Both the position numbers and the translations under genes were made by a program. DNA of 64,000 nucleotides from assembly GCA_965649765.1 (NCBI GenBank), contig OZ287754.1, positions 12,028,001 to 12,092,000 on the forward strand, in the 5' to 3' direction. The notes beneath the pieces are model-generated. The model was given only the letters and a program-made list of their open reading frames with translations. It did not search any database and was not told where the DNA came from. The stretch comes from Bispira polyomma. Taxonomy: Eukaryota. Positions 594-53,100 of this stretch are shown here, one piece after another. Position 1 is the first letter of the stretch; each line of letters starts with the position of its first letter.

Positions 594-3500
594 GTGAGTC
601 AAAGGCACTAATTAATTCTATATATCTGGGTTTACATCTTATTCCTTAAAATGGATGTATACTTGTTTGTGTTGTTTATCTCACAGATGACCAGATTTTA
701 TACACTAAAATATATTTGGATATCATTAAATTTTGCATAGATTTTTACATAGATATACCTTTTCAACAATATTTTTAACACCTCTCAAATATCAACAAAG
801 TTTATGGTAGATATATAAACACTGCTGTAATAGACAGGACATGTTTTGTGTAAAGATAGTTTGTGAATGTGACTTATACTCCATATTACAGTTGTATCAA
901 TTATTGCAAAGAAATAAATGATTTTAAATAAGTTTCTGGAGAAGAAAAATTTATAAAAATTATGCAAAATTATTCTAGACCTCTACATATTTATATTGAA
1001 AAGGTGTCGAATATAACAAAAAGTAAAATGTATATTTAAATGTAAATAATGACTATATCTTATATATTTGTTCTGTAAAATATTATTGATTGAATCAGTT
1101 TAAAGTGACTTGTAAGCTCTCTTGTGGGCTAGGTGTATTGTATCTGTTTTTCATTTGTTGTATAGTGTTTATGTTTATATACATGTCCCTATAATTAATA
1201 AATTGAATTAAAAATTCTTTAATAATAACCTCCCTTTAAAAAAATGCACAGGTCAAAGGCATTTATACAAAAATTACAGTAGCTGCACACGCAAAATTTG
1301 GATTTTCCCTATCCGCTAAATAATGTTCCTGTTCAAATAAGTTTTCCACAGCTGAAGTCCGAGCCATAAAAATCTGTCTCTGACATCAGAAGTTGCTAAA
1401 TATATGAGAACATTATCGATTGTTTATGTCTTTGAGTCAGATAGAGGTGCATGATGAAAACATTTTATACCTAAATACATAAGTTTTAAGGCTTATACAT
1501 TTTATTACATAATCCATGGCCATATAATGCCAATGTTCATATGTGTTTATATGTTAAATAATTAATAAATGGCGTGTCTAATATTTCAAAATATGTATGG
1601 CTGCTATTCCAATATCATTTTTGTAACTACGTTCGATTTCTTCCTTACAAATTCATTCATTCAAATCGCATTTCGACATTGTTAAACCATTGTAGCACTC
1701 TGTCGTTGTTATTACCGGCTAAGATATAATTTCAAAAAGTCAGCGTTTCCCAACCAACACTGATTTTTGCCCCCCCCCCCCCCCCCCCCCTCTTTAACCT
1801 ACTACCTTAACCGATCAGATTAATTTAGTTCCTCTGAGTTTCTGCGTTTATTGTTCACCTGTTTCTGGATAGTCAAAGAACTAGTGTGGCTAGCGATGAT
1901 ACCAGTGTGCAATAGCTGCTGAACTTGAGGCAACGAAAGCCATCTGGGTGCTTGAGGCAGCCTTCAGGTCTCATTGGTCTACAGTTCCCTTAGGCCAGTT
2001 ATATAAGTGACTTTACTTATTAACACAGGAAAAACAATTGCGGTACAATACTTTATTAGTGACCAGGGTTAGACTAACATTCACTATATACAGTTAAGTT
2101 GAGAGGGGCATAAGGTAACCATAAATGCAGAAAAATTTAAGGTCACCATAAATTAGGGTAATTATGGAAAGCACGGTAAGTACTTAAGGTAACCATAGAG
2201 TAAAATAAATTTTGAGAGAGTTAAGGTTACCATAAACTAGTTTAAGGAAACCATCAATTAAGGTGACCATAAAGTGCCCGATAAAAGATTAAGGTAACCA
2301 TAAATAGGAAAATAAGTTAGAGGGAGTTAGAGGTTACCATAAACTAAGTAAAAAGTTAGATGAAGTTAAGTTTAATATATAGAGTGAAAGGATTAAATGA
2401 TTCACTGAAATTAGATTAGAATTTTATAAAAATTTGGATGAGTATGTTATGTACTAGCCAAATGTAAGGTTACCTTATGCCCCAAACAAAAGTGGTTTTC
2501 TAATTTAATTGAGTTTTTATATTTCTTGAAAAACATTTTCTGTTATACAGAGGGGACATGAATTGTCCCAGACCCCAAATACCAAATTAGTGTAGATGTT
2601 GTAAAGCAACCTGGAAGGAGTCAGCCACCTGGGTACCGACATGAGCTGAGTCAGTGATGTAACGCCAAACACAATCCGACGTCCAGGTGCCATGATGCTG
2701 AATGTCCTGTAAGGGAACATTATTGTTGAAAGCAAAAGTGGCACCGGAGCGCCGGAAAGCGTGAAATGTAAGATTAGAATCTTGCAATTTTAACAAGTGA
2801 AGGAGGTTTTTTAAATGGCTACGAACACGTGAATCAGTAAGGGGAATCCAGGTGCAGTGTAGTTTATACTGGAAGAGGGGAGCATTGGGGCCAGCGGGGG
2901 CAAGAGCCAAAGCTGCCTTGATAACCGGACATAAACTCGAACCTGGGAGGGCAGGAAGGGCAGGAAGGCAAAGCAGCCTAACTAAATCTCTTTTCTGCAT
3001 TGTTTTTCGTCCATTTCACTAACAGTATGACGTAACCAGGTTTAAGCATGACGTCCCCCTGGCCAAATGTTTCAAAGGGGAAAATGCAGCCACAGAATGT
3101 GGGCACAGTTTAGAAAGTCTTAGAAAGCTAAAGAAACTGGTGAGATATACAGTCTTAAAAGTTTGCCCCATGTATGTACAGTCACATTTTTGAATAAGGT
3201 CCAAGAGCAGGGGAATGTCAAATAAACTTTTTAGTTTCACTTTAAGAGGTCTATTTACTGATAAGGCCTTTGTGTAAAAGGCAATTCTGGCGTCCGAGAA
3301 CATCTCAGTTTTTAGTTGGAACAAATTAAACTTGGCCTTAAAAGCTGCCAAGTGGTTAGATATCTGGGAAGGGGTGACGCTGTTGAAATTAAGGAACTCC
3401 AAGTAAGCAAGTAATTGGGACGCATTCACCTGATTTATCTGCCAATCCATGAAAATGTTAAAGGCCAGAAAGAGCCTGAACATATTGCTGTAGGCCTTCC

Positions 3501-6500
3501 AGGCGGACGCAGCAAAGGCTGTATGCAATCTGTCACAAGCTAACTTGGTAAGCAGTGCACCCGCTGGACTCGAACCTGACACAAAATATAAATAACAATC
3601 TTTAAATATTATATACTCTTGTCGACCTTTAAGAGGTATGTATGTATGGGAATCCATACTACTGGTCCCACCCATTCATGCAGCAATCTGAGATTATCGT
3701 TAGTCTTGTCCCACCTGGACAACAAGTTCGCCACCTTGTTTTTAATTCCCATTATATGGATTACTCTGAGATCAATATCAAACTGACTGGCAATCATATA
3801 GATATTTCGAGAATAGGTGGCCAAAAGAGGGCCCTGTGTGCGCCCATGCGTAAGTACACTGACAACGGCCTGGTTATCGCACTTAAAAAGTACACGTTTG
3901 CCCTTCCAGGGCGAAGCCCAAAGCCTTAAGGCCACTAAAATATTGAGCATCTCTAGGGATGCTATGTTGTCCTGAGACATGTCTGAGGGAATGTTAAGCT
4001 TGTATACTTGGTTATCATAGATGCCCTCCATCCCAGTTAGGCAGGCATCCAGCTCTACCTGTGCATAAGTTGGTCTATGGGCAAAAAAACTGACTCCATT
4101 GAACTGCTGCATGAACGTGAGGAACCACTTAAGATCTCTCCTAAAATCCTTAGTTATAGGGAAGTGTTTCTCGCTGTGATTGTCTCTTAAAGTTTTGCAA
4201 CATGCAGTTGAGGTATACCCGAGAATATCTTATGCATTTCGACACATAAAGGAGGGATCCTAGCAGTGATTGTAATTCTCTCTTAGTACAAGTACTCTTA
4301 CCCTCCCACTGCTTACATAATGCTCTGATTTCCCCCAGCTTCTCTGCTAGAATAGACGTTGTAAAAGTCTCAGTGTTTACTAATATGCCTAAGCAAATGA
4401 CCTCAGTACCAGGGGGAACAAGTTTCTTAAGACTGACCGTGAGACCTAGTTCCGTCAGCAGACCCTGTAGTCTGTTATATATCTCCCCAATTTTGCTGGG
4501 AAGGGCCACACATAGATAATCGTCGATATAAGCGTGTATATGGTAGCCTTCCTGTGCCATGATGTATCTTACCGAGTCAGAAATTCGCTGGAAAATAGTG
4601 GAGCCATTCTGATATCCGAACGGTAACGATCTGTCCAGGTAATAGGACCCCCATTTAAGACCAAGCAAATCCACATCCCCAGGGTTTATAGGCACATGCC
4701 TAAATGCGCGACTTATATCGACTTTAAAGATATGGCAACCTCTGCCCAGCTCTGCCACTTCCCTAGTTACATTATCCACCGAGGGATAGGACAACAAAAA
4801 TTCAGTCCCCAGATATTCACACGCAGAAGCCCCTGCATTAACAGATCGACCAATAGGCCAACTGAGGTCTACAATGACCCTTCTGTTGGTTGAATTAGAC
4901 TTATCACGGGTCATCATGGGAGAGAAGTGCATGTTCTTTATAGGGGGTTTATCAAAAGGACCCAGTATTGCCCCGAACTTACACTCATCCGTAAAATAGG
5001 TGTTCATGTGTTCGGGAAAGTCAATTGTCTATTTATGGTTTTCCTCGTGCGACTGATCAATGTTGTCACGACTGACATCAAGGGGGAAGCCATATTTAAT
5101 AAGTAACGGTAACTGCCAGTCCCAGTAATTTTCGAGGTACTGAGCCCACTTTTCGGGTTTTAACTGAGAAGTGACCGGTAATTGCAACCCTTTAAAGTTT
5201 TGTCTGCCATCCTGGCAGAGTAATTTATGCATTCTAAGAATATCAGAACTATAATTTGTAGAGCCATGGTTCCACACCCTGCAGCCCAAGTCTGACAGTG
5301 GTGTGAAGCCATAGGCCACTCTGCTTTGAGCACACCAAGCACATTAAGTTTTACAGTTTTTTTCTTGTTCCAGGAGTTCCCTCTTATTTGCCTTTTGTTT
5401 TAACTCAAACGCATATTTGTCCGTTTCAATACTATTTGTACTGCTTTCAGTCTCAATACTTTTACAAGGATCCACCACATCAGCGATGTCCTTAAGTTTT
5501 CTAACTGAATTCTTTTTACAAGCCTTTTTTGGACTACATACGGTAGCACCCACAGTGTGATTTTCTAAGCCATTGTCATCGATTCGGTTTAACACTTCAA
5601 ATCTATTATAGACAGAGACCCCACTGGGGTTATTGTTTGCATTCACACATGCATTTACACTTCTATTAATGCCTTTGACAGATTTGCTCTCAGTTTCCCC
5701 CTGTACAGTGCTTTTCCCCCCAACACTAGTCTTGCCCTTGTGCTGGCTGGTACTGTGTGAAGTGAACTTATGGGGGACAATAGATCGATTACAGTCATTT
5801 TTAAAATCAGCATTAGAATGCTTGACCCACCTGGCATGGTGCCTAACATTTAGATTTGACCTGGAAAGACACTTTTGACTTGACAGATTTTTGCCTGACC
5901 TTTCAGGTCCCCGTGTTTGTTTCAGAACCTCACTATAACTACATTTATTCGCCACACTAGTTTTATTCACACGCGAATCCGTACTAAAAGGTCTGCTGAA
6001 CAAATGGAAGTCCTGGAAGTCAGTCTTGTAAAACTGCTCACTATAAACCAGATTTTCAGCCACTGCATTTCTGCAGTGGCCCCTCAGTTTTTTGCTGCTT
6101 TTTTACTGCAGTTTGCAGCTTTATGAGTTCCACTACAGGTTTCACACACATGCTTGAAAAAAGTGGTGTCTGTCTTATGACTGAATGGGTATTTACAAGA
6201 GCCATCTTGAAAAAATTTACAATTAGCTGTCGTAGACTAACTAAAGGTTTGATTTTTTTCCTACGCCTTTCGCAAGTGAACCCTGTAAACCACCACTGCC
6301 AGAGACATGCCTTTGAGCTTGTGCCCGCCTAAGCCGGTCAAGTTTGTCGACGTCGCTCCAATTAAGCTTTTCCATCTCCATAGTTGTTAATACAACCACG
6401 TGACATGCTTTGGCGGCCTCCCAGAAAAAATCCTGGGAGTCCTCCATTAATCCGGCCATGTAATCGAGCATGATCTCTTTGGTTTTGGGAGATTTTTCGT

Positions 6501-9500
6501 CCTGTATTATGCGTGTGAATCCGCAGACCCACTGATTTAAAGTTAGGTCATCGTAAGACGGTCTTGCCTTAAAGTTCCCGGATAGGACATGATTTTGAGG
6601 CCATTCCACCACGCGCTTTACTATGAACACCTCCCCCCCTTTGTGATTTAATCTTACCTTTCACCAAATTTTCATTTAACTGCTTGAGCTCGGCGAGTCT
6701 AACTCGACTTATTTTTGAATGTTGTCATTCTGCTTAAGAAACTGTACACTTGGTACCACAGTATTTTCACTATTCGCTGTGCTCTCCCCACTCGAACTGG
6801 TGGAAGCGGTGCTGGAAGCAGTATCTGACTTAGCAGTGCTGACACAGTTAGCGGCTGCAAGAGTCGTTTCGGTTGCAGAAACTCGCTTGTCTAGTTTCTC
6901 CATTAACTGGCCCATGGCCTGTAACTGTGATAGTATTTGCCCGGAAACAACGGCCAGACTGTCAGCACCAACCAAACTGGTGTCGATAGTCTCTTCATCC
7001 GACAGAATTTCTTCAATAGCTACTTCCTCTGATAGCACAACCTGACATTTGCTGCCTACCGGACGGGCGTGCTTAGTACCATATTTGGTACAACCGTATA
7101 CCTTGACTTTAGGCATGTTTCTATTACAGAGAGTTAATATACAATAATGCAAAATACTAAAAACAGTAAACACATGTAAAACAAGTTCTGTTCTGTGTTG
7201 AGTGTTGAACTTGCTTCCTATGCTGCCGAGTTTGAAAAGGTAGAATTATTGACGAGAGACAGCTTATATAGTGCCGCCCAGTGAGCTGTGACGAGGATTA
7301 GGCTGGTCCCCCAAGAACTGAACTCTTCACCACCGGGGTGGTGCTTTGCACTTTATTCTCAATCATCGGCATGTGACCACCCAGTTCTTAAGTCCTTCCA
7401 ATAAACATATTTTACCTGGGCCATTGACACAGTCACTCTTAACAGTTTCAGCCTGTTCAACTGCCATATTGCCCTCGTGTCTGCCATTAAAAATTTGCAC
7501 TTTACACTTACAGGTTTTTGTGATACCCCCCCCCCCCCCTCCCCACCCCCCATCCCATTCTTCACATTCAAAAGTTTTTGTGTGGCATTATTCAATTGTT
7601 TAATGCCTAAGAATATCCTCCTGTCTCCAGTCTTCCAGATGTCAACAATTATTTTGATAAGACTTGACAAATGTGCAGAACATGTGGAATTATGCTTAAC
7701 CCAGCTGGTCGATTACACATAAAGTGTAGCGTGGGGTGAAACAAATAAATGTTAGAGCTTCAAACTTTGAATACTGCAGGTTTATGCGGAGACAGCTATT
7801 TTGCATTCTGTATTTTTACTGTCACTTATTTTTAAAAGATTCTCTAAAATTTGTCATACAACAAATATTTTGACGTCTAGACTGGATGAAATAAGTCTTG
7901 TATTTCAAATTTTAGATTGATTCCTGCAATGTTATTAATTCAGAATGCCAATCTGTTAACAGCTAACAGAAAAGTAAATCTCCAAAATAGGTATGAGGTT
8001 GTAAGTTAGACAAGTTCGGTAATTTCAAAAAATGGTGGTTATCTGTCTGTGAAGATTGTAACTTGAGGTAGCTCTTTTTCTTGTGGTTAGTGTATATCCC
8101 AACATAGTCTGCATACTGGGTGCAATGACCTCTTTTATCGAGATATTGGTGATGTATATGATGACAATAACACGATTAAGCTTGTTACCCTGGGGATGAG
8201 CATAAGAATAAGAACTGTAACTTGATTGACGCAGGGTAATCAGATTCTTGTCCTCAATACATTCTTAGATTTCTCTTGGCTATGAGTTTCCATAGTTTCC
8301 GTGACATTTCAGGAGGGTCATGGGTTTGTAGGTCTTAGACAAATATCAGTGCTAAGTTCTTTTTTCAGTGTTTTCTTGATATTTGTCCTTATTTTAGGTC
8401 ATCTGTGCAAGGGGAGAACAGAGTGCGGTGGGTCATAGTGGTGATCTGTATTGCTGCAGTCTTGATGCTGGGCCTAATCCTTGGACTTTACTTTGGACTG
8501 CGAGGTAAGAAAACAAAGAAATATACAAGAAAACTTCTTCATGATGGAGCTGATCTGCATTCTCCCCAAAATTGTAGTAGATCGAGTGGGTTTAGATGAA
8601 GACAAAAAGTAGCAGTACTCTGTCCTCAAAGTAAGGTTAAGAACACACTGGTCACTCTCAATGCTCTCAATACTGAATGAATTGTAATCGATTTTAAATA
8701 AAAAAAGACTCTTAGCTAAAATGAATAATTTTAATTTTCATTAAAATTTCATTGTTTTCCTGAGAAATATGTTTTGCCTAAAATTTACCTACACAAATTT
8801 CAAAATGATTTTCATGGACGGAATGGGTAACCATCCACTAACATACCAACTCAAGGTTAAGTGGCAATACCCTTCCATGATATTTTTCCAAATTTTAAAA
8901 ATCCATAACTCAAAACCTACAAATTACAGCATAACCCTATAGCATTCAGTTTATTTCTGCGTCTGGCTGAATATCTATGGCCAAAGCGCATATCTGCCGC
9001 ATTATACCCAGGTCTCAGAGTTAGCCAAAACTTAAGCATTGTATGACTTGATTTATACACTGATTGATATACTAAAACTTTTTTTTTTAATTTTTAACTG
9101 CTGCTGGATATACTAATGTGTGTGTGAATTTTAATTACATAGAAATTACATACTCACATGTTTTTCATAAACTGTATCACTTTTGAGGCATAATATAAAT
9201 TCATAGTGTAAGCAGTACATGATATAACATTTAATTTTTTATTTATTCATTTTTTTTGCAATATGTACAATAGTTTTATATCTCTACACCATTAAAACCT
9301 CATTTTTTTCATGTTGCACTAGAAAACAATATGACTGTGTAAGGAAATTAATGGCACTGATAATGTGGCTTCCCAAAATTGTGCAAAAACAATATATACA
9401 AACAAATGTCTATGTGATTAAAGCGACCAGCATAGTTTACTGATTATGTACTAATTGCTCAAATATATTAATTTAGTTACCAATAGTTCTTTTTTGATTA

Positions 9501-12500
9501 ATTTTAAACACCAAACATACGTAACCTTTTCACACAAAAATCAAGATAATATGTAATGGTATGTTTATTTTCTTATTATTGGCCATTTTTAGTTGAAGTG
9601 GGCTATTTGTGAATGAATCTGCCATATTTAAGCCAACTTGAGATACCTACTTCTCTGTCGCAAACTCTGTCGCAAACTTCTCTGTCGCAAGTTTTTGTGA
9701 ATATCACTTAACCTAAGACAAAAGTCATTTTTCCCAAAGTTAAGACAAGTATCTTAACTTTAAGCGTGGGCCAAAGCTAAACCCTTTACTGGATGCAGAC
9801 CAATCCACACAACCCTCCATATACAAGTGTATAGGACAGTATATAAATAATTTTATGAGCTACATATGACGTAAAAGAAAGTCTACTATGGTTAATCCTG
9901 GTATTTTCGGCCTACCTCATATTTTCGGCCCATGTCACGTTTTTGGTCTTTAGTAGAGGTTAAATTATTGTCTGTAAACGAACAGATGGTTTCCTAATGT
10001 TGTACTTATTAAAGTGAACCAGTGTCACTTTATTTTCAAACTTGATTATAAAAAATAGCCTGAAAATCATTTCAAACCATAAGTGTAGATTATTGGCTTC
10101 ATAGGCCGAAAATAGGGTAAACCTTCATACATACAGTTTGCCATTGTGTCGTCAACATGCATTGTAATCGCCTCTGTTATTATATTTGAAATACATTTAG
10201 TAGACCTAAAACATACAGTAATTTATATGCATTATAATAATTATTACCACGTGCCTTTAAGGGTTGAAGATTTTACTTGATAAAAACTTTACTCTGAAGT
10301 CATGTGTCATGGAATGAGATTACAAGAGACTAAAACCCAAAGACACAATGCATTACATTGGTGACTTTTGAGTTTTACAGTCATTGAAGATAAATAAACT
10401 TTAATTGAAAACTTTCAAATTTTTATTTATTTGTTACATTTATTCCAAACTAACCTAGTGATCATAGACAAATTAAAACAACATAAAAGTTATATACCTT
10501 AAGCAAATATAGTTTTGGTTTCATCACAAAGTTTCACAGAGTTTAACAAGTCCATTTTTGCTGAATAGTAAAGCATGCAATGTTGAATAATGACGTAATT
10601 AAATTTTAAAGATCTTGTATGCTTGGTTTAATATATACATTTTTTCAGTTGAATAAACTGGCCTTTTCAATCCACATCTTATGTTTTCATCTTAGGTTTA
10701 TAAATATTCCTGAATTTGGGCTAATATTATGCTGTTACGCCTTTACAAATAAACATTGTTACATAAACTTTAAAGCCTTTTCAATTTTCTAAATATTTCT
10801 GAATAATTTTTAAAAAGTATGTAAATAAACTTTTGTATGGGTATAGACATAGACCTACTTTAATTTAACTGGTGATGATTTACATCTTCCAATAGATACT
10901 GACTTACCAAATCTGAGTCCTGATATCCCATCCAGATAAGGATTGTTTCATCATCATCGTTATTATCATCCTAACTATTCAAATATTACTGGCAAACTTT
11001 GAGCAGCAATATCTTCCATAAATCCAGTCCAGACTGGGTTACCTGCCAGACAGTGGAATTGACAATACCCGGACAGCCAAGTCTCCTATAGTTTCAAAAA
11101 TATGGTTTGATCAGTATTATTAATTCAATACCCAACAATGACTTTTCTGTTTGAAGATGATAATACTAAGCTGATATCAGTAGATGGCCAAGTGGACCTA
11201 GATCTGTTGTTCAAGGATGAGTACAAGGATCCAACGTCTGACAGTTATCAGCAGCTACAACAAGACTTCTGCACTGAGGTAAATAATCTAAACAACTTAG
11301 TATTTCAATCACTGAAAGTTTCAATTAAAGACAAACAACACTTTCCAAAGGAAATATTTCAAAATTAGTTTGACATACTATATGGCTTGGTTGTTTGAAC
11401 TAAAACGTAAAAAATAGGTTATATTTTGCTACAATTACAAATTTGGTCCAGCCCTTTATATGATTTAACTATTGTGGTTTATTTCCCACAAGATCAGGTT
11501 TACATCAGGGGTATCTAGCAGTCAAAAGATGAATCAAAATGTGTCACTTTACCTCTAAGCTGATGTACATATTCGTATTCCTTCTTTATAATTAATTCTA
11601 CAATAATATTACATTTCTTCACCAATGCAAATCACAGTTGGCACGAATCAGGTCAGTTGTTTAACAGTGTAGAGAGATTGTTATTTGACTTGGTAACCCT
11701 TCTAACCTTGGTAAACTCTTCTATTTCATGACGTTTCTATTATCCAAACAAAATAGCACTCTCCTAAGACAAGACATTGATATAATATATTTTATACTGT
11801 ACTGTATTACTAATAATTGACATTTAATTAATTTTTAGATGCAGAAGCTTTATGACAATGAAGACTTAGAAAACTGTACCATCATCAGTGTTGTGTAAGC
11901 TAAAATAATTTTGTCTTGTCCTAAATCTTTTATGTAGATATACAGTAACTTTTCCAAAGACCTAAAATCCCCACTTCAGTGTATGTGGAAATAATCTAAT
12001 TTTTGCCACTTATCTTAGTGTTGAATTCTAACATTGTGTCACATTTTACTTCACTTGGACAAAGACAGCTCTGCTTATGTAACAAAAAAAAAAATTTTTT
12101 TTGGTTTCTTTATTATGAATTATCTATTTACACCTTTGACTTCCAGTCTAAATAACATTTCAGGCAGGGATCTGTTCGGATTCGCTACCTGATCGTTTAC
12201 AACATTCAGATCGATCAAGAAGAGGGTTTTCTTCAAGAGATTTTGTCTGAACTGCAGGCTGTGCCCCAAGGGAGAAAACCAGATTTATTTAAGAGCTTGC
12301 CAATTTTAGAGCAATCTATTGTTCTCTCAATAACAACAGACATGGTCACAGGTAAGAACTTTTAGTAGTGCTTATGCGGGGTAGCGCCGTAGGGGATAGC
12401 AAGTTCAGTGCTACTAATATTTTCCTCCCTGGGTTTATGCCCTATGAACCCCTTCCTAATTGGTTACTTGTGTACTAATTAACCTCTGTTTTCCCGCTTT

Positions 12501-15500
12501 TTAGCTAGAATCCTCACTTACACTATTGAAGTCATTTAGGCAACAACGCCATCTTTAATATTTTACATTTTTACTTTTATGTGTTTTATTTTTACTTCAC
12601 TGATTTTATTATTTGTGTTATGGAAACAAGAAATGCAACAAATGATTCACTAAGTGGTGCTACACACTAAGGAGGAACTGATCTGCAGTGTTTTTGCTGG
12701 ATTCCTGTGTTTTACTCTACTTTGAGTCTTACGATTATATGCTCGTTTGAGCGGTGGTAAAGGAACGTGGTCAAATCAATTATATTGCATCAAATTCACG
12801 GCTATTTGCCTGATTACATATAATTTAATTTAGATTATCGCGTTACAGTTCCTTTAGTATAGTTACAGGTATCAAAGCCACGAGTTCTTATATTATTCAG
12901 AGGCTATGGCCCCAAGGAAACAATACTACTGTCACAAGTGTGAAACTAGTCATATTAAACCCATTGATGAAAACTGTAAAATGCATACCAGTGTGGGAAC
13001 CTCCAAGCAGAACTCTATGGCTGGCGATGGTGTAACTGCTGCCGACGTCAACCTACAAATTTTGACTGAACTCAAAGCATTAAGTGGGCGTATGACCCAA
13101 GTTGAGCAGCAAGTTTATCGCAGTTCACATGGAGCCCAGGCTTTGACGGCGTCGAGCCCGGGGGAGTGCAGCCCAACCTAGACAGGCGGACCAAACCACT
13201 TCTGAGCTACTGGTCCCGACGCTACAGACACTACGTACATCCGACTCCCTACAGACTGCAGTGGATTCACGTCTTAAGGAATTGGTGGCCATTAATGATT
13301 CAGGTACGTCAAAATCTCAAAGAGGGGGTCCCGACACTCTGTGGGTGAAGAATAAGGTGGCTTGGCCTCAGAACGTTATACTAGGGGGACAAAACAAAAC
13401 ACGAGTTACGTATGACGCGTTGTCAATGGCCCAGTGGGTCTCTGGTTTTGCCAGTATAGCTAGAGATGAAAGTAGTTTAGACGTTAAAAACCAAATGTTG
13501 GAGTATCTCACTGACCTCATGGAGGACGCTCATGACTTTTCCTGGACCTCGGCTAAGGCTAGCCATGCCGTTGTACTGTGTAAAATGGAAGAGGGTAAGG
13601 TAACCTGGGGAGATGCCCACAAGTTGGACAGGATTAGATGGGCTCATGCCCAAAGGGTTGTCATCCAGACTGCAAATAGTAATTATCAAACCAACACCAG
13701 GAAAAGTCATGAGAAGTCCATCCCATGTAGGTACTTCCAGAGGGGTACTTGCCCCCAAAAAGGGGATCACGAATTCAAAGGTGTGTCATATAGTCATGTG
13801 TGTAACCAATGCTTTCAAAATGGGAGGTCTTACCCCCACCCTGCAAAAGACTGTAAAAAATATCCGTTAAAAAACGAGTAAGGCACTGCAGTAATGCAGT
13901 GCCAGCCTATGTTTCTTCCACACAAGAGGTGGTCAGAAAAAAACTTGCACAAAAAGTTGTAAATAATTCTAAAGGTTGTCCCACTAGAACTGTGTATAAT
14001 AGTCTTAAATGTAATACTGGCAGTACACATTGGAGGGCAGATTAGGCCAAATTTGTAAATAGATCTTATGCTGATGTGGTTAAAAGAAAGGCTCCCTCCA
14101 GGTCTGCTGCCATAAAGGTTTCTGTACAAAGTGCGAATGTGACTCAGAGGTGGCAAAGTCACCAGGTTAAATGTTCACCATGTTTAAATAACAACCAAAT
14201 TTCAGAAGTGTCCACAAAACATGAACTGGGGCACAGAGTGAGTGTTAAAACTTTCACAAAAGGTGCTTCCCCTTTTACAAGTGCACAGAGGAATAATGTA
14301 ATGTCAAAAATGGGTAAACCCCCTCCAACAAAAGGTGATCAATTTGGCCAAAAGCTGGAAATCACAAAATTAGACATTCAGGGCAAATGGCCCATTTCCA
14401 CTCACAATAGGTTTTCCCCGTTGAGTGACAATGACCATTATATGGACACTAGTGACAACTCTTTCACACATTTAGCAGATACTTGTAACCAAGGTCAAGC
14501 TCTTAAAATACTCTCTCGAGGTACTGGGGGAATAAAATCAGACAAATATGACCTAGAACTACAAACTAAATCGAAAAACAGGGAACTTATAAAACGTGCT
14601 TCCAACCAGCCTCAGTTCCAACAATGGGATACTCAAACTACAGATAAGTATGAGTTTATTCCGCTAAATGACCTCCAAGTTCCCCAAACGGATAAACGAG
14701 TAAAGTCGGATAAGTCTCTGTTAGAGTTACACACTCAGATTAAGAAGGACAACTACCCAAATTATATGGGGGCACAAGTTCAATTGAAATCTGAGTTGAA
14801 CCCAGATGTATGGGAAAAATACTTGACTGACTACTGGGATAAACAACTCCCCTTTTTGATAAGATATGGGTTTCCCCTCGATTTTAATCCTGACAGCAAG
14901 TTATCTCATACAGAACAGAATCATTCATCTGCAACACAATTTCCAGATGATGTGCATGCTTATTTAAAAGAAGAGACTGAGTTAGGTGCCATGTTGGGCC
15001 CTTTCCATAAGGCCCCCATAAAAAACCTCCATATTTCTCCCTTTATGACTAGGGAAAAGCCAGGTGCCGCACACAGGCGCGTTATCATAGATTTAAGCTT
15101 TCCTCATGGCAACTCTGTGAATTCGGCTGTAGTCAAGGATAAGTATCTCGGTACTGCGTTTGCATTAACCCTTCCCACAATTGACACAATTACAAACAAA
15201 ATATGTCGTATGGGACGTGGAACGCTCTTATATAAAATTGACATAAGTCGGGCATTTCGTCACGTGAAAATGGATCCAGCTGATTACAATCTATTAGGCT
15301 TAAAATTAGACAAATACTACGTCGACTCTTGCCTCCCATTTGGTTTTCGGTACGGGAGCGCAATTTTTCAGTGATTAAGTGACGCCGTCAGGTACATCAT
15401 GAAACGTCACGGACATGACGTCACCAACTATATCGACGACGTAATCGGCTATGGTGACGTCATAGAAAGTAAACATTCATTTGATATATTGCTCAACTTA

Positions 15501-18500
15501 CTCCAGGAACTAGGCTTTGCGATTAGTCACAAAAAACTTGTTCACCCCAGCACGTCAGTAACGTGTCTGGGGGTGTTAGTTAATACAAATGACTTGACAA
15601 TCTCATTGCCAGATGAAAAGCTACTAGAAATAAACACACTTGTGCAAGACTGGCAATTAAGAAACTGCTGCAGTAAGAGGGAGTTGCAGTCACTGCTAGG
15701 TAAATTGTTATATGTATCCAAATGTGTTCGAGTTTCACGTGCTTTCTTAAACCGAATGCTTGACGTCCTAAGATCTGTAGGCCCGGATCAAAAAGTAAAA
15801 CTCACACCTGAGTTTCATCAGGATGTAAATTGGTTTAAAAAATTTTTACCAACATTTAATGGAAAAGCCTTCTTTGAACACAAACCCACTACCGATTGTA
15901 TTCAGTTGGATGCGTGCCTCCAAGGTCTGGGAGGCCGTTGTAATGATGAAGTATACCAATTCCAAATTCCTCTAGGTTATCTAGATTTCACGATAGTTCA
16001 TCTGGAAATGTTAAACATCCTAGTTGCCATTAGGCTATGGAAGTCAGCGTGGGCAGGTAAGAGGTTAATATTGCAATGCGACAATGCTGCCGTGGTCACT
16101 ATCCTAAATTCAGGCAAAACTAAAGACCTCATTTTAGCAGCTATTGCCAGAAACATCTTCATGGCCGTAGCCTCCCATGATATCAGTCTCAAAACCATTC
16201 ACATTTTAGGTAGACTTAATACAGTGGCTGATCTCCTCTCCAGATGGCAGATCACGGCCAGTAATAATGACAAGTTACTACAACTGGTATCGAATCCCAA
16301 ATGGGTAAAAGTAAAAGACACAATGTTAGAAATAGATTGGTCTATCTAATTGCAGATGTACCTTCCAAGCTAAGAAAGATTGCTACACAAGCCTCATACA
16401 GAGCCCATCAGGCCTTTAGACCAGCCACTGAAAGGGCCTATACAAATATGTTTAGGATATTCTTGGCCTATTGTAGTTTTGCTCAGGTCAGGCCTCAAAA
16501 TATCTCCCCCCTTATTATATTGGCTTTCTTAGAAGTATTAGTGGTTAATCATGTCTCTTCCTCCTCCATTGCAAACTACCTTTCGGCGGTTAATGCTAAA
16601 TTGGCCCTCTATGGCCTTGACGTCTCTACATTTGCAGATCCTAGAATTAAGTATTACCAAAAAGCCCTTACACTCAATAGCCCCTTCAGGGCTAAAATTA
16701 ACGCTATTATTGACATTCCCCTGTTACTCCAAATTACTCAAATTTGTGACAGCATGTACATGGGGCAGATCTTCAAGGCTCTGTACCTCATTGCCTTCTT
16801 TTCTTTTCTTAGAATATCCAACTTACTTCCACATGCTGTCTCTCAATTCTCTCCACTAGTCCAACTGGCCCGGGGGGACGTACTTTTTGCCTCCCCTGGC
16901 CTCCACCTCATAATAAAGTGGTCTAAAACAATGCAGTCAAAGAATGTAGCAAAAGTTATTAAAATACCGAGTCTAAGTGGCTCTAGTCTCTGTCCGGTGG
17001 CTGCCACAAGGGCCTTGCTGGCTATTACTCCTGGACACAAAAATTCTCCTCTCTTTCAGTTTAAAAAATACCATAAATGGTCTCCAATGATTGACACCCA
17101 AGCTAGGCAAAATCTCACGCAAATTTTGAGGCGTCTTGGCCTCCAGCAATCAAACATTTCTTTCCACACCTTCAGGCGTTCAGGTGCCACCTGGGCCTTC
17201 AACAATAATGTCCCAATTCAAGATATCCAGAGCCATGGCACTTGGACGTCTGATTGTGTGTGGAAATATATTGTACAGGATCACAATGCATCTGACCAAG
17301 TCGCCCTCACCTTCAAGGCCCTCCTTTCCCCTTCTACTACTTCCTAGTTGGGCTTTGGGGCTTTATTTACATACATTATATACAAATAAAATATAATAAT
17401 GCTTAAATATAAATATTTTGGGGCCACCTTACCTTATACTAATTTAATCCTTTTACATCTTTACTAAATCTCTTTTGGCAACCTCAAATAAAATCTAAGG
17501 TTACCATTTTTCTTAAATTTAAACTCATTCTAAGGTTACCCTAACTTGAAGTTAGGGTACCCCTAAATTCAACCTTAAAAATTTCAATCTTTGGTAACCC
17601 TAACTTCCAAGTTGGGGCTACTCTTAACCTTAAACTCAATCTTAGGTAGCCCTAACTTTCAAGCTAGGGCTACCCCTTAAATTTTAAAAAATCCCTTTGA
17701 TCACTTTGGCCTGTTGTCCTCAGGTTAAGGTCACCTTAAACTCTTAACTTCTCCTAAACTCTTGGGGCTAAGGTGGCCCCTTACTACACAGTATGTAAAT
17801 AATTATTAGTGATAACATAGTAAAATTAAAGCTAATATCCCCAAAACCTACCTTTCTTGTTATTTTCCTGTGTTACACCACATCTACAAGTTTACTAGGA
17901 TAGGGCACTGTGCGGGGTAGCGCCGTAGGGGATAGCAAGTTCAGTGCTACTAGTATTTTCCTCCCTGGGTTTATGCTCTATGAACCCCTTCCTAATTGGT
18001 TACTTGTATACTAATTAACCTCTGTTTTCCCGCTTTTTAGCTAGAATCCTCACTTACACTATTGAAGTCATTTAGGCAACAACGCCATCTTTAATATTTT
18101 ACATTACCCACCCACTTGCCCCTACTACTTCCTCTGTAGTTTTCAGCTATGCGTCCGTCCCTGGAGTGCTGCATGCAGTCCCTGGGGTTCCTGAAGTCTC
18201 ACTTTACACCTTGGCGCAGGGGGGTGGGGGCTCGGGGCTGTGGGCCCACGAGTTATGCATTACTGCTGGCCTTCACAGTTCCCCGCCCTTGGGGGCCTTC
18301 TGGGGCCTCAGGTGACTTATCTCCCATACTTTTCTGGGTAACACCAGGGCCCTTAGGGGCCAACACTTACTTTTAGGTAGCTGCTTGCTGCTGAGGTTGC
18401 GTCTCCTTTTGTTGTTATCAATGTATGTTACTTTATTGTCTTCAGGGTTTTCCCTTTGTTGTATATCAAATTGATAATGTTGTCAAATGTCCTGCGTCAG

Positions 18501-21500
18501 GCAGCACGATTTATATGTATACAGTATGTGAAGTCGCATCCTTTTTGTTGTCATAGTAGCATGTAAAGTATAACTATTAATGTTGTTCCTCGTCACAACG
18601 AGGACTGGATTTGTAAAATGTTTGTATTTCGCAACCTGGTGTTGTCGCTAGTATAACGTTATAATGCATTGCACATCATGTTGTGTGCAAGTGCATTTGG
18701 TAGCTTTGTGATCACATGTTGAACTGTAAGCATGTAGTTTCAGGCATACTGGATTCATGGATCTCTTGTGGCTCAGTCAGGAATGAACTCTATACAAGCA
18801 AGCACTGCCCTCCTGGAAGACAAGAGCTACTCGATTTATATTTTGCTCATGTCTGTATGCATGTTCTCTGTAAGCCATGGTAATTGTATATGCTAGGGGT
18901 TTAAGGTCTACTGAGTTTTTTGCTATTCTTATGGACTTTATTAGTGAGCAGCACAGGTTTTAGTCTCTTAGCTAGTACCATGGTTTTTAATTTCGATTTT
19001 ACCCTTTTTTGGGGGCTTTATTTACATACATTATATACAAATAAAATATAATAATGCTTAAATATAAATATTTTGGGGCCACCTTACCTTATACTAATTT
19101 AATCCTTTTACATCTTTACTAAATCTCTTTTGGCAACCTCAAATAAAATCTAAGGTTACCATTTTTCTTAAATTTAAACTTATTCTAAGGTTACCCTAAC
19201 TTGAAGTTAGGGTACCCCTAAATTCAACCTTAAAAATTTCAATCTTTGGTAACCCTAACTTCCAAGTTGGGGCTACTCTTAACCTTAAACTCAATCTTAG
19301 GTAGCCCTAACTTTCAAGCTAGGGCTACCCCTTAAATTTTAAAAAATCCCTTTGGTCACTTTGGCCTGTTGTCCTCAGGTTAAGGTCACCTTAAACTCTT
19401 AACTTCTCCTAAACTCTTGGGGCTAAGGTGGCCCCTTACTACACAGTATGTAAATAATTATTAGTGATAACATAGTAAAATTAAAGCTAATATCCCCAAA
19501 ACCTACCTTTCTTGTTATTTTCCTGTGTTACACCACATCTACAAGTTTACTAGGGTAGGGCACTGTATATATTTATATTTTTTGTCTGATGCCTACTCTT
19601 TACTCTTAGTAATGGATATGACCTAGCCACACATCATTTCATGAACAAAGCCAAATTGATTTCAATCAAGATGATTATAACACAATTGTTCAAATCTGGA
19701 CCTGAGTGACGATCAAATGCAGGTTTAGTCTAAAAAAAGCCCAAGTTGTTCGTAGCCATAACAATTTAATTTACAAGTTACTCACAAGAACATAAGTGTT
19801 CACAACAATAAAAAGTCAATGTCTAAGCTAGTCCACGTCATTTTAGATTTTTATTACCAAAACATCTGGTCATTGTGATCCAATCTCAGATGTAAATTCT
19901 GAGTCCTTTAACTTCTTTCTGTTTGACAATACTTTTGTGTTCACAACAGTAAAAAGTCAATGTCTAAGCTAGTCCAGGTCATTTTAGATTTTTATTACCA
20001 AAACATCTGGTCATTATGATCCAATCTTAGATGTAAATTCTGAGTCCTTTAACTTCTTTCTGTTTGACAATACTTTTGTGTTCACAACAGTAAAAAGTCA
20101 ATGTCTAAGCTAGTCCAGGTCATTTTAGATTTTTATTACCAAAACATCTGGTCATTATGATCCAATCTTAGATGTAAATTCTGAGTCCTTTAACTTCTTT
20201 CTGTTTGACAATACTTTTGTGTAAGTTTGTTCAATTGTCAACTGTTTGAACTTTTTTAATTGTTGAGGTTTATTACTGCTTTATTATTTTTGTTTGCAAT
20301 TGATTAAGTACATCGTCAAAACTGTTAGTAAACTGAACATGACTCAGGTTTTTGCTTCATAATGTACAATTTTATGTTGTCAGTTTCATCATTTGATTGT
20401 GATAGCGTGGCCTTTTTTAATTTGTTAAACATTATTTTTTTTCTGACATGTAATGATAATACTCATTCACACAAAGCTATTCATAACAAGATCTCAATGA
20501 TAGTAGAAGTCTATTATCTTTCATTCCTGTCAGTTAATTGTCTCCTGGAGCAGCTTTCCATAAGTAAATGGGTAATCTGATACCTAGGTTTAATGCACAT
20601 ATTCAGTAAGAGTTAGAAATATTTGAACACAGAGGCTTGATAATGACCATTTTATAAACTTTCCCAAGGTACTTAAGCCTGAGACTGGGTATAGAAATAA
20701 ATAACAGAGGACTGCCATTTTAAGTTGCCATCTAAATCCAGGTTCTTTGTATTCACAATGTTGGTGTGTCATCCTCTAAACAATGCATGGTGGTAGGTAA
20801 TTTAATTAGAACCACCTTTAGCCGTCTCTGATGGTCTTTATGACTAGATAGACCTTAGTTGTTGAAAATGATGTAATAACGAAGAATTATATCTTGCATT
20901 TTATACATGGTTAGTGGTATATTAATGTAATTTTTTTTTTGTATTGTAGGAGAGCAATGCAAGACTTCATCAGTATGTTCAGGGGCTGATGTCAATGAGG
21001 CAATTGAATCTGTCTTTCCCACCACAGGTAAAATGACATGATTTGAATGGATATTAATAATTAACTGACAATATGGTCCTGAAAATATTGTTAATGTGTG
21101 TATGATGTGTACATCTGATTTAATGCCACTAGCTTCTCACCTCTAATGACAGTAGGTTTGTCTCCTACTGCCTCTTCCATGTGAGAAAGTGGGTCATATA
21201 CTTGCTGTGCATTCAATTATTTTCCAAGTACAAATAGAACTGGATTCCTCCACCAATAAATCTAGCCATCACAATATTACTACCTTATCAATCAGACATC
21301 ATTACAAGCTATTTGATCTATCTGTGTCATAATCTGTGTCAGTAAAATGTATGTATGTGTCTTCATGTGTAATCGATAAACTATATGTAACTCACAAGGG
21401 ATCTTTATAATTTTGCAACCAAACCACTGATCTAGAGAGGTGCCAACTTGATACATTTTCTTTTTTATCTTTTGTTTTGTTTGTTGTGATTTTTTCTGTG

Positions 21501-50100: not shown

Positions 50101-53100
50101 GGAGAAGTTCAAGCGCTTGGAGGAGAGGGTCAGTGAACAGGAGCAACAACGGGACTCACAACTGTCAATATAGTCCAGACCATCAGCCCACAGCTCGCCA
50201 AAGCCCAGGAAAGCGGCTTCTGGAGCGTGCACGCAGGCGTCGGGAGTGCAGAAGTTACCATCCATAGATTTCTTGCGATCAGACTCCACCATCCAAGACG
50301 AAGTAGACAAGCGGCTGTGACAATATGATGACCTATCCAGGGAGGAATTACCAGGTACTGTAAGCAAACGGTCACTTAAATCGGGCAGATACAGGGTGGG
50401 GGACCAGCGTGTCAAAATTGTGGTCCCCTGGCCTCATGAGTTATGTATGTTGGGTGAAAACCTTAAGATGACGACGTACGAAGAACTGAGTATTTAACAA
50501 TGGGTACAGGGTTTTGCAAGGTGCATGCTCCACGAAAACGACGCCGAAATCCGCAAAAACATGCTACACTACCAATACCTGCTTATGCAGGATGCCATAG
50601 ACCTTTTGTGGCCCACTGCTAAACGGGCCCACACTGCCATACTATCAGAAATAGAAAGGGGAAAGCTGGCTTGGGAGGACCTCGACAGTATTGATCGGGT
50701 ACATCAGCGCTTCACGCAGCAGACACTTAAAACGCCATATGCAGGTACCACTTCTGGGGCGAATAAGGAGCAAAGTAACAAGGTTGTAGTTTGTGGGAAA
50801 TATGCCAAAGGTTTCTGTAAGTATGAAGGAGGCCACTACGAAGGCGGGAAGCTCCAGAAGCACTCGTGTGGCTTCTGCTACAGAACAGTCAATAAAAATT
50901 ATGAGCACTCAGAGGCCAAGTGCAATCGCAAGGTGAAGGAGAGTGGTAAGCCCCACGAAAGTGACAAGGATCAACGAGTTTGATAAAATTAGTAGATTAC
51001 CCTTAAGAGTAAACAATACACCCCTGAGTGTGCTAGGCAAAATTTATTCTGATTACCATTCATACAAAGGCTGTATATCACACAGTATATTCTGGGGGAG
51101 TAAGCACCTGGGAAATTGTTTTTGTCGTTGGTGTAGTCGAGATAGACACTCAAATTATAGGGGTGTTTTGGCTGCTCTTGTAAAAAGGGAAAGTTGCAAA
51201 TGGGATAATTCTTATGAACACATTAAAGTGCTATTGTCTCCTACCAGTCAACAGCAACAAGTATATCAGTTAACAGATGTTAATTTTAACGGTGCTATAG
51301 GGCAGTCCCATAGCACGGGCATTATTGCCAGTGGTGAGCAATCAAGCATAAAGGACAGTATTAAGGTTCAATTATGTGCCAGTACCAGCATTACATATGA
51401 TTGGTATGACAACACGGGTGTTTCTGATCATATATGTAACTCAAGTGTTGATAGCTTTTCAGCACATATGTTTAGCTATAATTATAGTGTTTCACAAAGC
51501 GACGAGTTTTGTATAGATCAGACATTAAGCTCTGATCACACGTACATGGCGCCAGTAGCCATATTACAAAGTACTACATTTAGTTCAAACCTAAACAGTT
51601 CACTAGGGGGCCAGGGCTCTCATAGTATCAGTTCTATAATTGCCAGTGACACAAGTAATTGTTCATTTAGTGTTAGTATGGCTCTCAGAGAGGGCCAATT
51701 TGGTAATATGATTAATTGGGTAGAGAACGAGTCTAAGGCAGAAATAGGTGTCGGGAAAGAACATGGCATAAGGCTTAGTCTTAGCAAGGGAAGTACTGAT
51801 GAATGACTTAGCTGTCCTGTGTGAATATTTAGAATATGGCTTCCCCCTTACACTGAACTATAGTACTTTTCAGTACAATAAACAAGTTAGGAATCATGCT
51901 TCCGCTGTAAACTTCCCTGAGGCAGTGCAAAAGTACCTAGATCCAGAAGTTAGTTACAAGGCTATAGTGGGTCCTTTGTCAGAGCCCCCCTTTAGTAAAT
52001 TTTACGTGTCACCCATGATGTTCCGCCCAAAACCAAACGGGTCGAGAAGAATTATTGTAGATTTATCCTGGCACCATGGGTCTAGTGTTAATGAGGGTGT
52101 TCCCACAGATGCTTTCGACGACATACAATTCCAGTTAAAGTATCCCACAATAGACAACATAGTAGAAAAAATAGCCTGCCTAGGCCCAGAGGCACTTTTA
52201 TATAAAATAGATTTGCAGAGAGCCTATAGAAACTTGAGGTCAGACCCCCTTGATTATGCAGTCCTGGGCCTTAATTGGGGTGAATCCTACTATGTTGACG
52301 TCAGTGTCCCGTTTGGCCTAAGGTCAGGCGCATGCCAAATGGTTACCGATTCTATAACCTACTTAATGCATTCAAATAATTACTGGGTCTGTTCTTATTT
52401 GGACGATTGCATCGGGATATCGCCTCCTGGAAAGGCTAATACAGCATTCTTGAATTTGAAAAACCTAATAATAGAACTGGGTCTTCCCATTAACCAGGAA
52501 AAACTTGACGCTCCGACTGAGAGCCTTACTTGCTTGGGTATTAATATTAATGCTAGAACGGGCGTGTTGACAATTCCTGAGGATAAATTATTAGAGGCTA
52601 AGCTTTTGTGCACATAATGGTCACACAAGACCACAGCAACCAGAAAGGGCCTTCAAAAGTTGTTGGGAAAGTTATTTACATACACAGATGTGTCAAACCT
52701 GCGAGAATGTTTGTCAACAGAATCTTAGCCATTTTGAGGGGGACTCCCCCCAACGAGTCAGTGCCATTGTCGGCGAGGTTTCACAAAGACATTAAGTGGT
52801 TTTGTACATTTCTCAATAAGTATAATGGGGTCACGGCTATGCATACAAAAGAACAATATGTCCACCAAGTGTTTGTTGATGCCTCTCTTTATCCTTTTGG
52901 AATAATGAAGTGTACTCAGTTGATATCCCTGCAGCTTATAATGTGACTCTTAGTATAGTACATTCCTAACTATGACATTTGATATTGTAGGTAACCCACT
53001 GGCTAGAGAGTTAATGGCTGGGGTCAACGCACGTGTAGATACCGGATTTCGTCCACGAACATCCACAGCATACCAGGCAAAGTTTAGGGTTTTTACAGCC

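Follow-up and report, generated by a model that had tools for sequence, protein, structure and literature searches.

How are overlapping ORFs without start codons of their own expressed in tyrosine-recombinase (YR) retrotransposons? The question is raised by a 64,000-nt stretch of the Bispira polyomma genome (assembly GCA_965649765.1, contig OZ287754.1, positions 12,028,001 to 12,092,000), referred to here as "the window", with coordinates counted from its first nucleotide. The window holds three copies of a YR retrotransposon, all of them decayed. A sequence-only reading of the window had proposed that a single transcription unit yields Gag, Gag-Pol, and a fusion of the N-terminal part of Gag to the recombinase (GagN-YR), with pol reached by −1 ribosomal frameshifting. 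Here, we describe a defined signal at the gag-pol junction, and a different junction in a sister clade; for the YR, comparison of family members points to splicing. We put at roughly 90% the probability that a canonical −1 frameshift at the slippery heptamer A_AAA_AAC, followed by a stem, yields a Gag-Pol fusion, i.e., Gag joined to reverse transcriptase (RT) plus RNase H.

Structure and classification of the elements

Copy 2 lies on the + strand. Its gag ORF (12906..13881) has a C-terminal Cys/His knuckle, changes frame near 13150–13190, and has no Pfam match. Its pol (13869..16349), in the −1 frame, consists of an N-terminal region, RT, and RNase H, and its YR (16356..17347) lies 3′ of a predicted splice acceptor. 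Around these ORFs are split direct repeats: A1 at 12375..12569, which is 98% identical to A2 at 17911..18105, and B1 at 17354..17911, which is 99% identical to B2 at 19008..19566. Copy 1, on the − strand (2587..7116), comprises a decayed gag, pol in −1, and a YR; its gag is broken, as is that of copy 2. Copy 3 (50498..53871, + strand) comprises a decayed gag, pol entered in +1 with RT and RNase H, and a YR. Split direct repeats were not found for the decayed copies 1 and 3. In copy 2, A2 and B2 are ~900 nt apart (18106–19007), whereas they adjoin in the textbook layout. Just past B2 of copy 2, at 19796–20222, there are three tandem 141-nt copies of a sequence, 98% alike.

Passages in PMC8547959, PMC3783388, PMC3266345, and PMC9210276 describe the Ngaro layout as A1-ORFs-B1A2B2, with gag-RT-RH-YR on one strand and no methyltransferase. 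The elements studied here carry gag, RT-RNase H, and YR in that order, on the same strand and without long overlap, and copy 2 has the A1-ORFs-B1A2B2 arrangement of split direct repeats. A methyltransferase domain is attributed to DIRS1, and by implication to PAT, in a passage of PMC3266345. No Dam/MT Pfam match was found in the window ORFs or in three relatives, and pol ends soon after RNase H. DIRS1-like and PAT-like identities were ruled out, there being neither inverted terminal repeats with an ICR nor a methyltransferase domain. We classify the element as a Ngaro-type YR retrotransposon of the order DIRS, an assignment based on structure.

The gag-pol junction of copies 1 and 2

In copy 2 (+ strand), the slippery heptamer A_AAA_AAC at 13869..13875 stands in the gag frame, where it specifies Lys-Asn. 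It is followed by a 6-nt spacer (13876..13881) that includes the gag stop codon, TAA, at 13879–13881, and then by a stem-loop (13882..13903) with a 9-bp stem and a GTAA loop, the likely frameshift stimulator. In copy 1 (− strand), the same heptamer (6087..6093) is followed by a 6-nt spacer (6081..6086) with the gag stop codon, TGA, at its start, and by a stem-loop (6059..6080) with a 9-bp stem (10 bp counting one G-U) and a GAAA loop. The stop codon falls 3 nt past the heptamer in copy 2 and 0 nt past it in copy 1, within the spacer in both cases.

The sequence-only reading had singled out these two cassettes, and its sequences for 13869–13903 (+) and 6093–6059 (−) match letter for letter. Its account of their layout (an in-frame X_XXY_YYZ heptamer, a 6-nt spacer, and a perfect 9-bp stem) is accurate, as are the compensatory swap of the second stem pair between the copies, the GNRA identity of both loops, and the −1 placement of the pol frame with respect to gag. 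Other details needed adjustment: (i) pol of copy 1, described as fully open, is open over ~250 codons after the slip site and is then interrupted at 5346, 5031, and 4152, and by more stops beyond; (ii) the TAG at 14043, given as the one stop in pol of copy 2, is present, but there is a second in-frame stop at 15372; (iii) the two junctions, described as unalignable outside the cassette, match in 124 of 285 columns, so that this was slightly overstated, although the cassette is indeed the sole dense block of matches.

Within the window, a slip site followed by a GC-rich stem of at least 9 bp occurs at just these two positions, and no such combination was found in 40 Markov-chain control windows. 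The 40 nt downstream of the heptamer fold with z-scores of −4.0 and −5.0 in the two cassettes. Passages in PMC3542737 and PMC5009743 give the consensus of −1 frameshift signals as X_XXY_YYZ, 5–9 nt, and a stem-loop or pseudoknot, and A_AAA_AAC is listed among the most shift-prone heptamers in a passage of the latter. The window junctions present the heptamer in the upstream frame, a structure at 5–9 nt, and a startless, overlapping −1 ORF. In the mechanism that we propose, the stem would make ribosomes pause, and at A_AAA_AAC they would move back by one base as tRNA-Lys and tRNA-Asn slip in tandem, from A AAA AAC to AAA AAA C. The shift would be taken by a minority of ribosomes, with most terminating at the gag stop codon, 0–3 nt downstream. 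A_AAA_AAC is also the heptamer at the gag-pro junctions of MMTV and HTLV.

A run of six A at the site, seven in some copies, could also let RNA polymerase slip, such that the frame would change in the transcript rather than on the ribosome. However, the run is short, and its phase relative to the gag codons is conserved, as is the final C; moreover, transcriptional slippage would not call for a 3′ stem spaced to suit a ribosome. We consider a transcriptional shift extremely improbable and the ribosomal −1 shift the better account of the site.

Distribution of the cassette across the genome

The genome (1.04 Gb in 75 contigs) yields thousands of gag candidates at first look. The strict cassette pattern has 101 genomic matches. 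A pattern of slip site plus stem core, with the loop and the outer pairs left free and a gap of 7–9 nt allowed between slip site and core, has 722, with 0 for the reversed control; the distance from slip site to core is 8 nt in all 100 matches listed of the 722. X The cassette has no match in Rfam, where two weak matches scored far below the gathering thresholds, and viral contigs gave a single match, within unrelated phage-like genes.

To avoid motif bias, we assembled a set of 252 loci by searching with Gag protein: five genome searches supplied 150, another 100 were regions picked for spread and long gag frames, and 2 were metagenome loci. A recognizable Cys/His knuckle is present at 212 of the 252, which form 58 clusters at 88% identity. 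Among the 151 knuckle-bearing loci outside the clade of copy 3 (see below), 117 have an exact, in-frame A_AAA_AAC at the end of gag. In 109 of these 117, the −1 frame outruns the other two beyond the gag stop codon, with a median of 262 codons versus 25 and 4; family copies are related, such that locus counts do not represent independent events. Where at least 400 codons are open (45 copies with A_AAA_AAC), the open frame is −1 in 43, 0 in two, and +1 in none, and both frame-0 copies have apparent deletions. In the 30 closest copies, the −1 frame is open up to the end of the locus in 21. At loci L142, L143, and L210, the gag frame stays open through 941–1221 codons and takes in pol sequence lying downstream; a deletion is visible at the cassette of L142.

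Because pol is in +1 in the copy-3 clade, the −1 signal is to be read as valid for part of the family only.

Metagenome contigs contributed only two related loci. One of them, L223, has A_AAA_AAC with pol in −1. At the other, L222 (1300–1330), one TGA separates gag from a pol that shares its frame, there is no slip site, and the pol frame is open for 650 codons; in this single copy, the TGA may reflect either readthrough or a copy-specific change.

Pairing and covariation in the stem

An alignment of the stem was built from 65 of 82 distinct junctions, whose rows are related; the other 17, which contain indels or are poorly anchored, were excluded beforehand, and the alignment is therefore biased in favor of pairing. 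Within it, 93.2% of cells pair. Changes on both sides of a pair occur in 25 rows at pair 2 (C-G in 38 rows, G-C in 24, and U-A in 1) and in 5 rows at pair 9, which varies among A-U, U-A, G-C, C-G, and G-U. Pair 1 is swapped in 11 rows yet unpaired in 22 of 65. The covariation score over the 65 junctions is 0.192, compared to 0.055 for shuffled alignments; with slid partners it does not exceed 0.064. The number of pairs with a both-side change (three) is not above that in shuffles, being reached in 278 of 500. RNAalifold, unaided, predicts the same stem, comprising pairs 2–9. Stem pairs 1, 2, and 9 covary.

The six central pairs are near-invariant, and they encode His-Cys/Ala-Val in the pol frame as well. 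Since they hardly vary, they provide no covariation evidence, and one may ask whether the stem-loop is mainly a signal for packaging, dimerization, or reverse transcription, or a by-product of the peptide His-Cys-x-x-Ala-Val, with the slip site working alone or weakly. The core is near-invariant in its sequence itself, beyond pairing, and each arm contains the palindrome TGCA, as might be expected of a signal with another role. Some deep lineages also retain the slip site without a significant hairpin: in clusters 52, 54, and 55 and at L223, z is about +1.5 to −0.8, and the −1 frame is kept where copies are intact enough to tell. By contrast, the fixed distance between stem and slip site is not what a separate signal would lead one to expect, and selection on the peptide would not fix synonymous positions, which are fixed too. 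Furthermore, clusters 46 and 51 have a different stem (GCCAGC..GCTGGC) and a different peptide, with the stem starting at the same position. This replacement speaks against a by-product of the peptide, and it partly answers the objection raised by the invariance of the central pairs. Taking both sides together, we regard another main role for the stem-loop as unlikely and retain its reading as a stimulator of −1 frameshifting.

The GNRA loops shared by both window copies are not family-wide. They occur in 334 of the 722 genomic cassettes, far above the 1 in 32 for random loops; among the 21 clusters with the core, GNRA is exclusive in 8, mixed in 2, and absent in 11. A GNRA loop is favored, not required, and the stem would work by position and stability, not via its loop.

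An HIV-like lower stem using the spacer was considered and rejected, with a mean of 1.25 pairs versus 1.44 in shuffled tails (21 clusters). A simple pseudoknot scan of the junctions gave no convincing second stem. In the deep clusters 55 and 57 (L256–L283), A_AAA_AAC and a long −1 frame are kept, and the gag stop codon lies 21 nt further on; a long stem folds in cluster 57 (z about −2 over 70 nt), and cluster 55 has no stem.

Entry into pol

The −1 frame is closed by a stop codon shortly before the slip site, 15 nt upstream in copy 2 (13854) and 12 nt upstream in copy 1 (6105). The first ATG in the pol frame lies at 14301 in copy 2 and at 5232 in copy 1, i.e., 144 and 287 codons past the slip site. 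In 57 of 87 copies, representing 20 of 23 clusters, the −1 frame encodes the motif [ST]Y[AS]x.[VLIA] no later than codon 115; the motif was selected after the translations had been inspected, and none of the 87 copies has it in the other frames. In 33 of the 87 copies, belonging to 8 of the 23 clusters (both window copies' clusters among them), it comes ahead of the first Met. Of the 120 Pol relatives found in other assemblies, 38 have it as well. The conservation of a −1 peptide upstream of the first Met therefore indicates, at the level of sequence comparison, that protein selection acts on a stretch of pol that lacks its own start codon.

Relatives in other assemblies bear on both sides of the junction. 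Among 195 Gag relatives, 88 have the knuckle, and 73 of these 88 end at most 16 residues past it. The last residues of 57 of the 73 short-tailed proteins are KN or KNx, the peptide encoded by AAA AAC. On the Pol side, 4 of 120 relatives start with HCxxAV, the peptide encoded by the stem.

A gag stop codon 0 or 3 nt past the heptamer, as found in 86 of 117 copies, would also suit a different route, in which Pol is made by termination-reinitiation, or from an internal start near the gag stop codon, with the hairpin serving that process. Cluster 50 (L234, L240, L241, L247, L250, L252, and L253) provides an instance of the arrangement, with a pol-frame ATG that overlaps the gag stop codon in the spacer (AUGA) and is a possible second entry into pol; three Pol relatives start with MRHC, and their ATG would likewise overlap the gag stop codon. 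However, there is no ATG near the junction in window copies 1 and 2 or in their clusters, where the conserved −1 peptide comes before any start codon, and reinitiation leaves the exact, in-phase A_AAA_AAC unexplained. We judge it very unlikely as the general route into pol. The −1 frameshift, by contrast, agrees in comparative tests with the reading frame, the position of the site, its fixed spacing, the covariation and replacement of the stem, the −1 peptide, and the C-termini of Gag.

A candidate +1 signal in the copy-3 clade

The copy-3 clade (loci within L061–L090 and L181–L220) contributes 61 loci in 13 clusters, with one place counted twice. In an RT tree of 34 rows, one per cluster with a long RT match, with a midpoint root and L223 on a long branch, the 11 rows of this clade lie on one side of a branch with SH-aLRT 97. 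Gag of copy 3 ends with GAT CAA CGA GTT TGA T (50969..50984, + strand), a candidate +1 shift site. GTT followed by a stop codon ends gag at 47 of the 61 loci, in 11 of the 13 clusters. All three stop codons are used, and the next base is T in 46 of the 47 and C in 1. GTT accounts for 54 of 275 Val codons in gags of the clade. A Gln is conserved two codons before the terminal Val, with Pro in one cluster.

Pol is in the +1 frame at these sites: +1 is the longest frame at 44 of the 47 GTT-stop loci, and it is the open one in each of the 18 GTT copies whose open frame reaches 400 codons or more. Of 39 copies, 35 encode the conserved Cys/His motif FWxxxHL/IxxCxCxWC in +1, and in 33 it lies upstream of the first Met. 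No structure was detected downstream of the junctions of this clade (z of −0.9 to +1.6). Among 13 Gag relatives from other assemblies, seven end in V, three in I, and one in L, all possible NTT codons, with two ending elsewhere. Taken together, these comparisons suggest that the sister clade lacks the −1 signal and probably shifts +1 at GUU-stop.

The nearest parallel is viral. Passages in PMC3542737 and PMC4227794 describe a +1 frameshift at GUU_stop_C between closterovirus ORF1a and ORF1b, and the former describes the mechanism as unresolved. The copy-3 clade resembles closteroviruses in having GUU and then a stop codon, a polymerase in +1, no conserved ATG, and no 3′ structure. It differs in being an animal retrotransposon, in having U rather than C after the stop codon in 46 of 47 copies, in using any of the three stop codons, and in the conserved Gln two codons before Val. 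This site is the more surprising part of our findings. If true, it would give an animal-ribosome example of a poorly understood, closterovirus-like +1 mechanism, with hundreds of natural variants.

Predicted splicing of gag to the recombinase

The recombinase would have an mRNA of its own, in which splicing places the YR behind the front part of gag. In gag of copy 2, a phase-1 donor, CAG/GTACGT, is predicted at 13301..13309 (+), with the exon ending at 13303, and the AG of the predicted YR acceptor ends at 16355 (+). In copy 1 (−), the predicted donor is at 6658 and the predicted acceptor at 3576. A survey of acceptors covered 103 rows, 27 of them without matches; in 65 of the 76 usable rows, a YAG that is in phase 1 with the YR occurs, together with a pyrimidine tract, 9–40 nt past the pol stop codon. 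High-scoring gag donors number 169 in phase 1, 11 in phase 0, and 1 in phase 2, counts that include redundant copies, and the donor coincides with a Gly codon, which reads GGT-A in nearly all cases. The frame of the YR relative to pol is −1, 0, or +1, depending on the cluster. A variable YR frame combined with a conserved acceptor favors predicted splicing to GagN-YR over a frameshift between pol and YR. The proposal that GagN-YR comes from the same transcription unit thus finds support in the comparative evidence. In three runs of unspecified kind, available as contigs, the element is covered evenly, which says nothing on expression; the predicted splice joint is absent among the 15 joints listed of 40 in these runs, which are likewise silent on expression.

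With a conserved phase-1 gag donor and a conserved acceptor before the YR present in the family, Pol could in principle also come from a spliced RNA, with the gag donor joined to an acceptor where pol begins. The junction does not look like an acceptor, however: in the −1 clade it is A-rich, without a pyrimidine tract or a conserved AG, and AGs close to the junction of the +1 clade differ in phase (0, 1, or 2) from cluster to cluster. Splicing into pol is highly improbable in our assessment, and frameshifting remains the preferred route to Gag-Pol. On balance, we lean toward an overall scheme in which one Ngaro transcript would give three products, with Gag-Pol made by frameshifting, GagN-YR made by splicing, and the direction of the frameshift flipped within the family: most lineages would shift −1 at A_AAA_AAC with an exchangeable stem, and one clade would shift +1 at a structure-free GUU-stop-U, convergent with closteroviruses.

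Relation to known recoding signals

The −1 signal shares with the canonical eukaryotic signal the class and phase of the heptamer, the spacer, the 3′ stem, the position between gag and pol, and the −1 frame. It differs in its host, a YR retrotransposon without a protease or DDE integrase, in having the gag stop codon within the spacer, in the sequence conservation of the stem core, and in that no pseudoknot or lower stem was found here. The signal itself is textbook and therefore unsurprising; its Ngaro setting is new. Downstream of a single type of slip site, the family supplies numerous natural variants of the stem and loop.

Among animal LTR retrotransposons, a 2003 survey summarized in a passage of PMC5009743 found −1 frameshifting in 28 of 51 and +1 in 2 of 51. 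The family described here is similar, in that a −1 heptamer is the common route and +1 is rare, although the survey covered LTR elements and this family is a YR retrotransposon. For Ngaro elements, the layout is the same as in PMC8547959, PMC3783388, PMC3266345, and PMC9210276, where the gag-pol signal is undefined in the passages concerned. Poulter and Butler 2015, as quoted in a passage of PMC13003380, propose a −1 frameshift into the YR; here, by contrast, the YR-pol frame is variable and the splice acceptor is conserved.

The literature surveyed contains no definition of a Ngaro/DIRS gag-pol frameshift signal, although Poulter and Butler 2015 and Goodwin and Poulter 2004 may already propose one. 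In the 300,000 of 449,034 characters of PMC5009743 that were covered, there is no mention of 'DIRS', 'Ngaro', or 'tyrosine recombinase', and passages of PMC6681497, PMC9210276, and PMC7192593 contain nothing on a Ngaro/DIRS gag-pol signal.

Other features of the window

Short, Cys-rich, EGF-like-looking segments recur at 22300–31950 (repeat family D11). Among them is a 2.3-kb tandem duplication, 27279–29593 and 29605–31943, at 97% identity. A 30-aa probe from the Cys-rich segments has no Pfam match; the segments are probably exons of a host gene. At 57303–57895, there are inverted arms of ~100 nt made of 15-nt subrepeats, in a MITE- or foldback-like arrangement.
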